Shown here: piece by piece, positions 54,001 through 60,000 of the stretch
Numbering within the stretch: the stretch's first letter is position 1
Layout of the letters: each line of letters begins with the position of its first letter
Assembly (NCBI RefSeq): GCF_044324785.1
Contig: NZ_CP172127.1
From: Escherichia coli
GTDB taxonomy: Bacteria; Pseudomonadota; Gammaproteobacteria; Enterobacterales; Enterobacteriaceae
Direction: 5' to 3' (one strand)
DNA: 64,000 nucleotides
Made by a program: the position numbers

Positions 54001-57000
54001 GATTGCGCTGGCTGCTGCCAAAACGATGGGTGTGTCGCCTTATCCATTTGCGATGGTCGTGGCGATGGCAGCATCCGCCGCCTTTATGACACCGGTTTCT
54101 TCACCGGTTAACACACTGGTTTTAGGCCCGGGAAATTACAGCTTCAGTGACTTTGTGAAGTTGGGGGTACCGTTCACCATTATCGTGATGGCGGTTTGTG
54201 TGGTGATGATCCCGATGCTGTTTCCGTTTTGACAAGAGCCTGATGTCGCATCCGGCGCTTATTGCCTGATGCGACGCAGACTCCGGCTGCTTACAGCGGT
54301 GAATCCTGGCTAATCTCATCGAGCGAAAGATGGAAGCTGGGAACAAAGACTTCCATGAAGTAGTCCATCTCCTGGCTGCGGCGCGCTTCAAGCGTCGCTT
54401 CCAGTCGCGTTTTTGCCAGCAAGAATTCATTATTTCCCGCCGCGAGTTCTTCCAGACATTTCAGATATGCACACAGTGCATCTGCCTGTTTCACCAGCGA
54501 TTTCTCTTCATCGCTATATGCATGCTCGTCAATTAACGGCGCAAAGATATCCCGCAGCTCTTCCGGAACCATATCGACCAGTTTTTGCTGAGCGATTTTT
54601 TCAATCGCCTTGTACTCCTGAGCGATTTGCGAATTGAAGTATTTCACCGGAGTAGGGAGATCGCCGGTGAGCACTTCTGAGGCATCGTGGTACATCGCCA
54701 GTAAAGCGATACGTTCGGCGTTGACATTACCGCCAAATTTCCGATTTTTGATAGCTGCCAGCGCATGGGCGACCATCGCTACCTGCAAACTGTGTTCGGA
54801 CACATTTTCAGTCCGCACGTTGCGCATCAGCGGCCAGCGGTTAATGAGTTTCAGGCGGGAGAGATGGGCAAAAAAATGGCTCTGTTTCATAGTGACCTTA
54901 CGTATGATGACATCATCAGGTCATTGTGGCGGGATAACACTGCCGGATGCAATCTCCGGCAGTGAAATTAAGATTACAGCTGATGATAACCAGAAAGGAA
55001 ACGCGCGAACTTGCTCAAAGACAGCTCGATATCATCGACACGCGGTAGCGTGACAATGCGGAAGTGATCCGGCCACGGCCAGTTGAATGCCGTCCCTTGC
55101 ACCAACAGAACTTTTTCCTGCAACAGGAAATCCAGCACCATTTTCTGATCGTCGTGAATATTAAAGCGTTTGGCGTCGATTTTCGGGAACATGTACAGCG
55201 CACCACGAGGTTTCACGCAGGAAACGCCCGGAATATCATTGATCAATTCCCATGCGCGGTTACGCTGCTCATAAAGACGACCGCCAGGGGTAATAAATTC
55301 ACTGATGCTCTGATAACCGCCTAGTGCAGTCTGAATGGCGTGTTGCGCAGGAACGTTAGCACACAGGCGCATTGAGGCCAGCATTTCCAGACCTTCGATG
55401 TAACCTTTGGCGTGTTTTTTCGGCCCGTTCAACACCATCCACCCCTGACGGAAGCCAGCAACGCGGTACGTTTTCGACAGTCCGTTAAAGGTAATGGTCA
55501 GCAGATCAGGTGCCAGCGGCGCAATTGAGTGATGCTCAGCGTCGTCGTAGAGAATTTTGTCATAAATTTCATCGGCGAAGATAATGAGATTATGCTGACG
55601 TGCAATCTCCACTATCTCCATTAACAGCTCTTTGGAATATACCGCGCCGGTTGGGTTATTTGGATTGATAATAACGATCCCACGCGTACGAGGCGTAATT
55701 TTAGCGCGAATATCATCAAGGTCCGGGAACCAGTCAGAGGATTCATCGCAAAGATAATGCACCGCTTTACCGCTGGAGAGCGAAACCGCCGCGGTCCATA
55801 GTGGGTAATCAGGTGCAGGAACCAACATTTCGTCCCCGCTGTTCAGCAATGCCTGCATTGCCTGAACGATAAGCTCCGATACACCATTGCCGATGTAAAT
55901 ATCTTCCACGGTAACATCACGCATGCCACGAGCCTGGTAGTGCTGCATGATGGCTTTACGCGCGGAGTAAAGCCCTTTGGAATCGCAATACCCTTGAGCG
56001 GTAGGCAGGTTGCGAATCACGTCAACGAGGATTTCATCTGGCGCGTCAAAACCGAATGGTGCAGGATTGCCGATGTTCAGTTTCAGTACCTTGTTACCTT
56101 CTTCTTCCAGGCGTTTTGCTTCTTTCAGCACCGGACCACGGATGTCGTAACAGACATTCTCTAATTTGCTGGATTTTTCAATGGGGGACATGAATCTTGA
56201 CCTTTTTTGCTGTTATCGCCACTCCCTGCCGTGGAAGTCAGCTTAGAACAATGTACTCCCCCAGGACGGCGTTTTGAAGGTCTGCAGAATAAGATTTTGC
56301 CAGAGGGGAAGGCTTGATTGTGCTGCTAATAACTTAATAATGGCAAAATAATGAGGTGTATATGCTTAATAATTAATGTTATGTAGTGAATTATTCTGAT
56401 TCTTAATTGTGAGTGTGGTTTTTTTATCTGTAAGATAATTGTTTGAAAATGCCTCGTTTAAGAATTCACTAATGAATCGTGATGATGATATTTCCGCATT
56501 ACGGAGAGTTTAACAGCGTGATGATTTCCGAGGTGTCGTAATGGGTGCAAGGTGTGAAACTATTGTTAAGCGGGATTAATGAATGAGGATGATGCTAATT
56601 AATTATTATTTAATATTCAAAAAGGTTTTGTTGTGCTTATTAATAATAGAAGATTACTTTGCCTAACATAACATAACTTTGCATCAGATAATTCGCAATG
56701 ACCCTTATAAATAAAAGGTTTTTGGGGTAAAATGCTCGCATAAATGACGGATCCCTGCTCTTGATGCCGCCTCACCATTGCTGTTTGTACGTGTTCGCGT
56801 ATGACCAGCGATGCTGCACGAGAGTGGAACAAGGACTCACATTTACATTTATACAAACACGCGCATGTCATAAATACAAAAGAGTGAGTAACTTAATAGA
56901 TATGCGATTCCTGAAGATATATTCTGTGATCTACTTCAGGCATTATAACGGAACAATGTGAGTCGCTTTTTTAGTGCAACTCATATGCATTTTTACTTTC

Positions 57001-60000
57001 GTCCGGGTTCCGGATGAAACTGCCAGGGAGGCACATTACAAATGGAATTGCTTGTTTGTGTGTGCACAGCATTAACCAGCTCAGTATGAGCCGCCAGTAA
57101 GTGATAATATATGATAAGTGCAAATCGTCCGATAATTAACCTCGACCTCGATCTGCTGAGAACATTTGTTGCTGTTGCCGATCTGAACACTTTTGCTGCC
57201 GCAGCTGCCGCTGTGTGTCGTACTCAGTCCGCCGTAAGTCAGCAAATGCAGCGTCTGGAACAACTCGTTGGGAAAGAACTGTTCGCTCGTCACGGTCGCA
57301 ACAAACTGTTAACTGAACATGGCATTCAACTTCTTGGTTACGCCAGGAAAATCCTGCGTTTTAATGATGAGGCCTGCTCATCATTAATGTTCAGTAATCT
57401 TCAGGGCGTGTTAACTATCGGTGCTTCAGATGAATCTGCCGATACGATCTTACCTTTCCTGTTAAATCGCGTGAGTTCGGTTTATCCGAAACTAGCGCTG
57501 GATGTCCGCGTTAAACGTAATGCCTATATGGCAGAAATGCTGGAATCCCAGGAAGTGGATTTGATGGTAACCACCCATCGTCCTTCAACGTTTAAGGCGT
57601 TGAACCTGCGTACCTCGCCAACACACTGGTACTGCGCAGCGGAATACGTATTGCAAAAAGGCGAGCCGATCCCTCTTGTATTGCTGGATGATCCTAGCCC
57701 GTTTCGCGATATGGTGCTGGCGACGCTTAATAAAGCAGATATTCCATGGCGACTGGCTTATGTCGCCTCGACGCTTCCGGCAGTTCGTGCGGCAGTAAAA
57801 GCCGGTCTTGGCGTGACGGCAAGGCCGGTCGAGATGATGAGTCCAGACCTGCGTGTGCTGAGTGGAGTAGATGGCTTACCGCCGCTACCCGATACCGAAT
57901 ATTTGCTGTGCTATGACCCGTCCAGTAATAATGAGCTGGCCCAGGTGATCTATCAGGCGATGGAGAGCTACCATAATCCGTGGCAATACAGCCCAATGTC
58001 TGCTCCGGAAGGCGATGACTCATTGTTGATTGAAAGGGATATCGAGTAATCGACGGACCATAGATAATTTCTGAGACAATAGTGTAAAAACGAGCCGCTG
58101 GGGGTGTTTTAAACCCCAGCGGCTTTTTTTTAGTAAAAAGCCTTCCTCGTATCGTGCAGAACGTACAAAACTGTTCATTTTTCAATCACCAGAGATTCAC
58201 GTCCCGAACGCACAAATAATCGCCTGAAAAAAATCACCTGCTACAATGATGTTAAAAAATACGTAAATTTGTTGCTGCGTTTTTGTTATGGAATGACAAA
58301 AGCGTGTCACAGATCAAGAAAATACTCTCTTTTGGGGGGAGGAATCGACACAAATTCCTGTCAAAATAGACCCGTATTTTTTCCATTGCTTCACAACGGA
58401 CACGATTCAACAACATCTAATTATCCTGGAGTCGTCAAGGATCTGGGGTGAAAGGGCATTAAATGCTAATGGTGTTGATATTATGTAAACTAATGTGAAG
58501 AAACTTTTGTTAAAGTTGACAAAAGGTTATAGAAAGGAGTAAAAGACCACATCAATTAGCTGTATAAAAGAGTTTCTACAGTGATTGTAAGGTTTTTTTT
58601 ATTCCTCCCCATGAATCGATGTGGCGTCCATCTGCCGTGAAGAGCAGTGAATCTGGCGCTACTTTTGATGAGTAAGCAATGAGTATGTCAACATCCACTG
58701 AAGTCATCGCTCATCACTGGGCATTCGCTATCTTTCTTATCGTTGCCATTGGCCTGTGTTGCCTGATGCTGGTAGGCGGTTGGTTTTTAGGCGGTCGCGC
58801 ACGCGCGAGGTCGAAAAACGTGCCGTTTGAATCCGGTATCGACTCGGTCGGCTCCGCCCGCTTACGCCTGTCCGCCAAGTTTTATCTGGTGGCCATGTTC
58901 TTCGTTATCTTCGACGTTGAAGCGCTGTATCTGTTCGCATGGTCAACCTCTATCCGCGAAAGCGGCTGGGTAGGCTTTGTGGAAGCTGCAATTTTTATTT
59001 TTGTGTTACTGGCAGGTCTGGTTTATCTGGTGCGTATTGGCGCGCTGGACTGGACGCCCGCGCGTTCACGCCGCGAGCGTATGAACCCGGAAACGAACAG
59101 TATCGCTAATCGTCAACGCTAACCGCGAGGCATTAAGATGGATTATACGCTCACCCGCATAGATCCCAACGGTGAGAACGACCGTTACCCCCTGCAAAAG
59201 CAGGAGATCGTAACCGACCCTCTGGAGCAAGAAGTTAACAAAAACGTGTTTATGGGCAAGCTCAATGACATGGTTAACTGGGGTCGTAAAAACTCAATTT
59301 GGCCGTATAACTTCGGTCTTTCCTGCTGTTACGTTGAGATGGTGACTTCGTTTACCGCGGTGCATGACGTGGCGCGTTTTGGCGCAGAAGTATTGCGTGC
59401 TTCGCCGCGTCAGGCTGACCTGATGGTGGTGGCAGGAACCTGCTTTACCAAAATGGCACCGGTTATTCAGCGTCTGTATGACCAGATGCTGGAACCAAAA
59501 TGGGTTATCTCAATGGGTGCCTGTGCCAACTCTGGCGGTATGTACGATATTTATTCCGTTGTGCAGGGCGTTGATAAATTCATCCCGGTTGATGTGTATA
59601 TCCCGGGCTGCCCGCCACGTCCTGAAGCGTACATGCAGGCACTGATGCTGTTGCAGGAATCTATCGGCAAAGAACGTCGTCCGCTCTCCTGGGTGGTTGG
59701 CGATCAGGGCGTTTATCGCGCCAATATGCAATCAGAGCGCGAACGCAAGCGCGGTGAACGCATTGCCGTAACCAACCTGCGTACACCTGACGAGATTTAA
59801 TTTGCGCCTGTCGGCAAAGGGATTTTTCTTCGCTTATTCCTAAATCTATTTCGCGAAGCTTACTGCGCCGACAGTCACCACGGACCATTTGCAATGGTGA
59901 ACAATATGACCGACTTAACCGCGCAAGAACCCGCCTGGCAGACCCGCGATCATCTTGATGATCCGGTGATTGGCGAACTGCGCAACCGTTTTGGGCCGGA

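Follow-up and report, generated by a model that had tools for sequence, protein, structure and literature searches.

The 919-bp alaA-lrhA intergenic region of Escherichia coli is very likely a composite regulatory region serving both genes

Introduction

The closest known systems to the locus studied here are the rpoS, csgD and flhDC leaders, which are Hfq-bound, extend for several hundred nucleotides ahead of the gene of a global regulator, and pair near the ribosome-binding site with several small RNAs (sRNAs) that include ArcZ, RprA and McaS. The lrhA gene of Escherichia coli is alike in all of these respects and belongs to the same motility, biofilm and RpoS network. We examined the intergenic region between lrhA and its divergent neighbour, alaA, in a 64,000-nt stretch of E. 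coli contig NZ_CP172127.1 (hereafter, the window; all coordinates refer to it unless K-12 is named). As expected of a long-leader gene, lrhA has a transcription start site far 5' of its start codon (56740), preceded at the right distance by conserved -10 and -35 hexamers. The direction of control differs, however, from that of rpoS: ArcZ and RprA activate rpoS, whereas all of the validated sRNAs repress lrhA. Two further traits set lrhA apart from the three leaders, namely that its chimeras with McaS are the most numerous yet McaS has no effect on a reporter, and that conservation across genera is limited to the final ~90 nt of the lrhA leader. For the DNA itself, the nearest likeness is the csgD-csgB spacer, with which the lrhA-alaA spacer has been explicitly grouped as a carrier of many regulator sites (Shimada, 2014).

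A homologous divergent pair separated by a long spacer, alaA-pigU, is known from Serratia sp. ATCC 39006, where transposon insertions in the spacer cause overexpression of the LrhA homologue PigU; the same effect has been cited for E. coli. The comparison is drawn by gene arrangement rather than by spacer sequence, and it involves another genus and other phenotypes (CRISPR-Cas and pigment). The hexA, pecT and rovM loci are presumably comparable to alaA-lrhA and alaA-pigU. The control of lrhA matters because, in enteric bacteria, LrhA acts near the top of the hierarchy that governs motility, fimbriae, RpoS and virulence. The long spacer and leader explain how signals from envelope stress (CpxR, Rcs, OmpR), amino acids (Lrp) and oxygen (ArcZ) converge on lrhA, and UhpU brings in the hexose phosphate and flagellar sigma-28 signals. 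To the published record we add a base-level map of the described features, an Enterobacteriaceae-wide view of the architecture and a candidate RNA hairpin on the alaA side.

Results and Discussion

Conserved architecture of the alaA-lrhA gap

The alaA-lrhA gap is very likely a composite, two-sided regulatory region and not a hidden gene. It spans exactly 56192..57110 (919 bp) between two divergent genes, which were placed with the listing of open reading frames (ORFs) and the RefSeq annotation of E. coli WP8-S18-ESBL-07, a strain identical to the window across the gap:

54974..56191, minus strand: alaA
57111..58049, plus strand: lrhA

On the alaA side, we infer a unit (56192-56278) that would comprise a family-wide sigma-70 promoter, a leader of ~52 nt starting with a conserved hairpin, and a ribosome-binding site. 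On the other side, and according to published experiments whose features we located here, the conserved lrhA promoter fires at 56740 to produce a 371-nt leader. The last ~90 nt of this leader provide pairing sites for the Hfq-dependent ArcZ, RprA/McaS and UhpU, the latter just 5' of the Shine-Dalgarno sequence. Pairing reduces both LrhA synthesis and the mRNA and, in doing so, relieves the repression of flhDC by LrhA. Signals from RpoS, Rcs, oxygen and hexose phosphate are in this way tied to motility. The DNA in between (56292-56739) is AT-rich, is bound by regulators according to published studies, and contains one conserved block that keeps a constant 130 bp to the lrhA -10.

A scan for LrhA with one genome per species retrieved 80 loci from many genera of Enterobacteriaceae. 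At 78 of these loci, alaA is the divergent neighbour of lrhA, at a distance of 764-1140 bp (median, 943 bp). The gaps of these 78 species were aligned with MAFFT and identity was expressed relative to the window. The alignment revealed four conserved blocks, with poorly conserved, fast-evolving AT-rich DNA between them:

56192-56291, no strand assigned: block A, adjoining alaA (62-83% identity)
56552-56611, no strand assigned: block B (52-67% identity)
56672-56731, plus strand: block C, the lrhA core promoter (56-74% identity)
57032-57110, plus strand: block D, the final 80 nt of the lrhA leader (62-71% identity)

Identity drops to merely 20-45% in the stretches 56292-56551 and 56752-57031. 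Besides block B, the blocks sit exactly at alaA's promoter and leader, at the lrhA promoter, and at the part of the lrhA leader devoted to sRNA and ribosome binding. The spacing is also kept: from block B to the lrhA -10 it is 130 +/- 2 bp, and the median distance from the alaA -35 to block B is 319 bp (standard deviation, 17). More variable than these upstream spacings is the length of the lrhA leader, which is predicted to range from 334 to 587 nt across species. The same architecture was recovered in six alaA-linked metagenome contigs with LrhA proteins just 66-68% identical.

The constant length of the gap is not, by itself, diagnostic. As a control, we measured the spacer between lrhA and nuoA and found it equally conserved in length (614-633 bp in most of 72 species). 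Because this second spacer is just as constant, length conservation is not peculiar to the alaA-lrhA gap and is, rather, a general property of such regulatory spacers. The lrhA-nuoA spacer of the window (58050-58678, 629 bp) has a GC content of 33-39%, and the few outliers among the 72 Enterobacteriaceae species measure 645-943 bp. A separate observation concerns contig CACSKA010000019.1, titled Chryseobacterium sp. 18061, which carries a typical Enterobacteriaceae alaA-lrhA locus encoding AlaA and LrhA proteins 94% and 78% identical, respectively, to those of the window. This contig is probably from a mislabelled or contaminated assembly.

An earlier note on this DNA, made from the sequence alone, had pointed to an AT-rich gap of unusual length, and both descriptions hold. 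The gap is the largest of the ~62 intergenic gaps in the window (the next ones measure 660, 629 and 622 bp), and its GC content falls to 31-36% over 56300-56800 versus ~50% in the flanking genes. The K-12 MG1655 counterpart (2406642..2407560) is also 919 bp long, has nothing annotated inside, and differs from the window by 27 single-nucleotide polymorphisms (SNPs) and no insertions or deletions (indels). The low GC content could also be the mark of horizontally acquired or decayed mobile DNA that lacks a specific function and is, for example, silenced by H-NS. In line with this, the central 260 bp evolve fast and bear most of the within-species SNPs (20 of the 27 that separate K-12 and window map to 56315-56546). 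Yet 5425 of the 5426 complete E. coli genomes carry the gap, in every case at one place on the chromosome, and it is syntenic and of similar length in the 78 species of many genera as well as in the further metagenome contigs. Nor does it contain tandem repeats or the long or inverted repeats typical of mobile elements, and its conserved blocks are held at fixed spacing. The synteny data already contradict an acquired origin, which we regard as the least probable of the alternatives, and an extremely improbable one.

A predicted promoter and a candidate RNA hairpin on the alaA side

Block A contains the features that we assign to alaA transcription and translation:

56250..56278, minus strand: predicted sigma-70 promoter of alaA, with -35 TTCAAA (56278..56273), a 17-nt spacer and -10 TACATT (56255..56250), from conservation
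56192..56244, minus strand: predicted alaA 5' untranslated region (UTR) of ~52 nt, from the position of the promoter, with Shine-Dalgarno AAGG at 56201-56204; 68-83% identity across the 78 species
56218..56242, minus strand: hairpin where the alaA mRNA is predicted to begin, GCUGACUUCC-ACGGCA-GGGAGUGGC, from the alignment and covariation in the 78 species

The -10 hexamer is the same in nearly all of the 78 species and the -35 hexamer is the same in at least 90% of them. The spacer between the two keeps its length (17 nt) and varies in sequence. We predict a sigma-70 promoter because conserved hexamers separated by a spacer kept in length and not in sequence are the usual signature of one. The conserved upstream promoter predicts, in turn, an alaA start near 56242-56244 and a leader of ~52 nt.

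The hairpin begins at the predicted alaA start or within a few nucleotides of it. Its core, UUCCACGGCAGG (56225-56236), is nearly invariant: all 78 species agree at 10 of its 12 positions, and at least 90% of them agree at the remaining 2. The stem, by contrast with this core, tolerates changes that preserve pairing. Stem pair 33-50 is AU in 44, GC in 14 and GU in 11 distinct sequences, and a second pair is UG in 38 and UA in 30. Overall, 91% of the alignment cells pair, versus at most 74% when the partner is slid. The covariation score was reached by none of 500 shuffles, a result to be read with the small number of pairs (only 9) and the relatedness of the sequences in mind. RNAalifold also recovered the inner stem. 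The G-U pairs are valid on the alaA-sense strand only, which favours a hairpin in RNA over a palindrome in DNA. The minimum free energy (MFE) of the single sequence is -10.6 kcal/mol, an unremarkable value. Rfam returned no match to the hairpin, we found no description of an alaA leader element in the literature searched, and the motif occurs once in the window. The modest new item of this study is a candidate conserved RNA element at the start of the alaA message.

The 5'-terminal stem-loop of the ompA leader stabilizes its mRNA. The alaA hairpin resembles stabilizers of the ompA type in its position, a few nucleotides from the predicted 5' end, and in a stem maintained by compensatory or wobble changes. 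It differs in that UUCCACGGCAGG, the sequence of the loop and its closing pairs, hardly varies at all, and a purely structural stabilizer has no need of such constancy. The hairpin could be a sequence-specific recognition site, for a protein or an RNA, that controls the synthesis of the alanine transaminase, instead of a generic 5' stabilizer; we put this forward tentatively, as a less than likely reading. The candidate hairpin could also open a way into the regulation of alanine synthesis, which is poorly understood.

Two extensions of the hairpin were tried and rejected. As a marker of a wider regulon, the motif performed poorly: a metagenome scan with CTTCCACGGCAGGNAG produced 120 exact matches, of which just 6 were alaA-linked, and the remainder were taken as chance. 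A link between the leaders of alaA and alaS, whose product AlaS is annotated by RefSeq as a DNA-binding repressor, came down to one common 9-mer, GTGGCGATA, that alaA orthologues do not conserve. The 9-mer is found at 56213-56221 in the window and in the K-12 alaS leader (locus positions 5040-5060), probably by chance.

The lrhA promoter and its upstream DNA

Between the two transcription units lie a fast-evolving spacer, block B and the lrhA core promoter:

56292..56551, no strand assigned: fast-evolving AT-rich spacer (23-43% identity to the window across genera), which holds the distal alaA promoter of Shimada (2014)
56552..56611, no strand assigned: block B, candidate regulator-binding DNA, TGTGAAA..ATTGTTAAG..ATTAATGA..AATTAATTATTATTTAATATT, spanning -188 to -129 relative to the lrhA start, from conservation
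56672..56739, plus strand: lrhA core promoter, with -35 TTATAA (56705-56710), 17 bp, -10 TAAAAT (56728-56733) and then 6 bp before the published start (56740)

The lrhA -10 reads TAAAAT, TAAGAT or TAGGAT in nearly all of the 78 species. At -57 to -43 of the lrhA promoter is a conserved element, ATCAGATAATTCGCA (56683-56697). This element seems to resemble an RcsB-type box. A direct repeat, TAATGAAT..GATGATG, is also present in this DNA. Its two copies (56470-56493 and 56577-56600) are 107 bp apart, or about ten helical turns, and the second overlaps the start of a 27-codon ORF discussed below. The repeat may be a repeated regulator site.

The earlier note had proposed that multiple regulator sites control lrhA, a reasonable guess that published work supports; in fact, experiments had by then resolved the regulator sites and RNA-level features of the gap. 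Among the long spacers of stress genes that contain many regulator sites, one study named the '920 bp-long lrhA-alaA' spacer, and binding peaks of the RpoD holoenzyme were detected within it (Shimada, 2014). Chromatin immunoprecipitation signals for OmpR are reported to be elevated at the alaA-lrhA spacer. Furthermore, the lrhA promoter is directly bound and activated by CpxR, is bound and activated by Lrp, and is subject to positive autoregulation by LrhA, according to published studies.

The lrhA leader and its small RNAs

The lrhA leader fills 40% of the gap and is where most of the RNA-level features are found:

56740..57110, plus strand: lrhA 5' UTR, 371 nt (Melamed, 2023), its start placed with fusion primer SM079
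56764..56824, plus strand: stable hairpin domain close to where the leader begins, on which MFE and centroid folds concur; the 3' end at 56819 lies in its closing helix
57021..57031, plus strand: UGCCAGGGAGG, complementary to the ArcZ seed (nt 66-76), the best ArcZ run in the leader at 11 nt (7 Watson-Crick and 4 G-U pairs)
57040..57053, plus strand: AAAUGGAAUUGCUU, nearly invariant across genera, with a GGA that the MFE fold places in a hairpin loop
57060..57071, plus strand: GUGUGCACAGCA, complementary to the UGCUGUGUGUA motif common to RprA and McaS (best runs, 11-12 nt)
57079..57091, plus strand: hairpin close to the ribosome-binding site, GCUCA-GUA-UGAGC, from per-species folding
57091..57104, plus strand: UhpU pairing site (~57091-57098; validated position, 57095) followed by the Shine-Dalgarno-like AGUGA (57100-57104), from published mutants and conservation

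The 371-nt length of the 5' UTR was reported by Melamed (2023), and the fusion primer of that study, SM079, starts at ATAAATGACGGATCCCTGCT, which corresponds to position 56740 of the window. RIL-seq recovered chimeras of the lrhA leader with UhpU, ArcZ, RprA and McaS (Melamed, 2023). In the same work, UhpU repressed an lrhA-lacZ fusion and compensatory point mutations restored repression; ArcZ and RprA also repressed the reporter, whereas McaS, which contributed the largest number of chimeras, did not affect it. The mutated site can be placed precisely: the lrhA-M1 gBlock (Melamed, 2023) changes GCCGCCAGT to GCCGCGAGT, a C-to-G substitution at 57095, 16 nt before the AUG. Independently, lrhA was recovered in a pull-down with RprA, which induces decay of the lrhA mRNA (Lalaouna, 2018).

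Block D includes CACAGC(A) at 57065-57071, of which CACAGC is nearly invariant in 76 species, and AGUGA (57100-57104), invariant or nearly so across genera. Between these two motifs, nearly every species has a hairpin with stems that differ in sequence (GGUCA/UGACC, CAGGU/ACCUG, CGGGU/ACCCG and others), and the UhpU site starts on the 3' side of the window's version, GCUCA-GUA-UGAGC. RNAalifold found no consensus structure in the last 125 nt of the leader in the 76 species, where indels break the alignment. The longest runs of complementarity to ArcZ, RprA and McaS fall in block D or beside it and use the known seed regions; for RprA, nt 62-72 match 57061-57071 and, for McaS, nt 45-56 match 57060-57071. 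Such computed runs are consistent with the published pairings and do not prove them. The predicted fold of the whole leader has an energy of -112.2 kcal/mol (z = -2.4 versus shuffled sequences).

A GGA in a hairpin loop is the usual shape of a CsrA site, and the shape of AAAUGGAAUUGCUU (57040-57053) is like it. In Yersinia, CsrA controls the LrhA homologue RovM. We found no evidence in the literature searched for CsrA acting on lrhA in E. coli. As a further observation on leader diversity, an extra insertion of more than 100 nt just 5' of CACAGC brings the predicted leader of Entomohabitans teleogrylli to 587 nt, compared to 334-464 nt elsewhere.

The Hfq-bound RNAs catalogued from this locus invite a different explanation, namely that the gap holds an independent, unannotated sRNA gene with its own promoter and terminator, apart from both leaders. 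Such RNAs, of ~150 and ~350 nt, were first listed as intergenic 'ig-lrhA-alaA' species (Bilusic, 2014), and Term-seq placed two 'orphan' 3' ends in the gap, on the K-12 minus strand, at 2406933 (strong) and 2406691, the latter scored as not Rho-dependent (Adams, 2021). However, these ends map to 56819 (+80) and 57061 (+322, 50 nt before the AUG) in the window, so that each lies 3' of position 56740, where lrhA transcription starts, and on lrhA's strand. Northern blots tied the Hfq-bound signal to the full-length lrhA transcript of ~1.5 kb, whose level was raised in an hfq mutant (Bilusic, 2014). We identified no terminator-like site in 56192-57110, promoter-like sites were at chance level (3 versus 3.5 expected), and a scan of the gap against Rfam 15 with E-values up to 10 returned only sub-threshold chance matches to models of eukaryotic small nucleolar RNAs and microRNAs. 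Moreover, the DNA outside the leaders and promoters is the least conserved part of the gap. The 'small RNA' signals are fragments of the lrhA leader, and a separate sRNA gene is very unlikely. Hence, the unannotated small RNA suggested in the earlier note survives only in a weak sense, as Hfq-bound fragments of a published leader. Conserved secondary structure does exist in the gap, but as hairpins inside the alaA and lrhA leaders.

The second Term-seq end (57061) sits at the RprA/McaS pairing site, and the two ends would delimit stable 5' fragments of ~80 and 322 nt. These Hfq-bound fragments may act in trans as a sponge for McaS, an idea floated by Melamed (2023).

Several observations weigh against a two-sided regulatory region. 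The ~260 bp at 56292-56551 have no assigned function and are poorly conserved in sequence, yet their length varies by only a few base pairs in most species. We located no regulator site in the gap at base resolution, and a search for the CpxR consensus GTAAA-N5-GTAAA with up to 2 mismatches found none in the gap. We infer the start site and proximal promoter of alaA solely from conservation, and Shimada (2014) predicted instead a distal alaA promoter, TTAAGA-17-CATAAC, on the minus strand at 56406..56378. This distal promoter sits in poorly conserved DNA, and its -10 is TATAAC in K-12 versus CATAAC in the window strain. On the lrhA side, neither the 11-12-nt complementarity to the sRNAs (with G-U pairs allowed) nor the duplex energies were better than in shuffled controls. 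This was true of whole-sequence duplex prediction, tiled duplex prediction and contiguous complementarity, and the tiled scan missed the genetically proven UhpU site. Because computed complementarity did no better than shuffles, the case for sRNA pairing rests on the published genetics.

Short ORFs in the gap

The gap contains short ORFs, and the earlier note had named one beginning ATGAGGATGATGCTAATT as an example while raising the possibility of a small protein. The ORF is indeed present:

56583..56666, plus strand: 27-codon ORF MRMMLINYYLIFKKVLLCLLIIEDYFA, starting ATGAGGATGATGCTAATT, from the ORF listing

This ORF, or another short one in the gap, could in principle encode a functional small protein. 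Despite the AT-richness, the frame of the 27-codon ORF is open, with an ATG or GTG start, in E. coli, a second Escherichia lineage, Salmonella arizonae and several Citrobacter species; the open versions have the core LINYYLIFK in common, and a GGGA lies 9 nt 5' of the ATG. Among species, however, the frame can be as short as 15 or as long as 50 codons, and neither its N- nor its C-terminus is related from one species to the next. E. albertii and several Citrobacter species lack the start codon. Furthermore, Enterobacter, Kosakonia, Buttiauxella and others have an interrupted frame but a conserved DNA block (AATTAATTATTATTTAATATT). Because the block persists in genera that have lost the frame, it is the DNA that is conserved, not a protein. 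The ATG itself belongs to the repeated DNA motif TAATGAAT..GATGATG, which recurs 107 bp upstream, and the ORF lies 5' of the only documented start site on the plus strand. An upstream ORF in the lrhA leader (57014-57100) fares no better, as indels disrupt its frame in other genera. No match at the coordinates of the 27-codon ORF appears in the part of the Stringer (2021) ribosome-profiling supplement that was available to us, and the PIRT-seq supplement had no relevant match for it. The proposal of a small protein is thus not supported: the frame stays open only in Escherichia, some Citrobacter and one Salmonella, and there its length and termini vary. The 27-codon ORF is most likely not a gene and a small protein in the gap is unlikely, with the chances of a functional product from this or another short ORF being, in our view, very slim.

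Other long gaps of the window include those from sixA to a fimbrial gene (7076-7735, 660 bp) and from dedD to cvpA (32368-32989, 622 bp).

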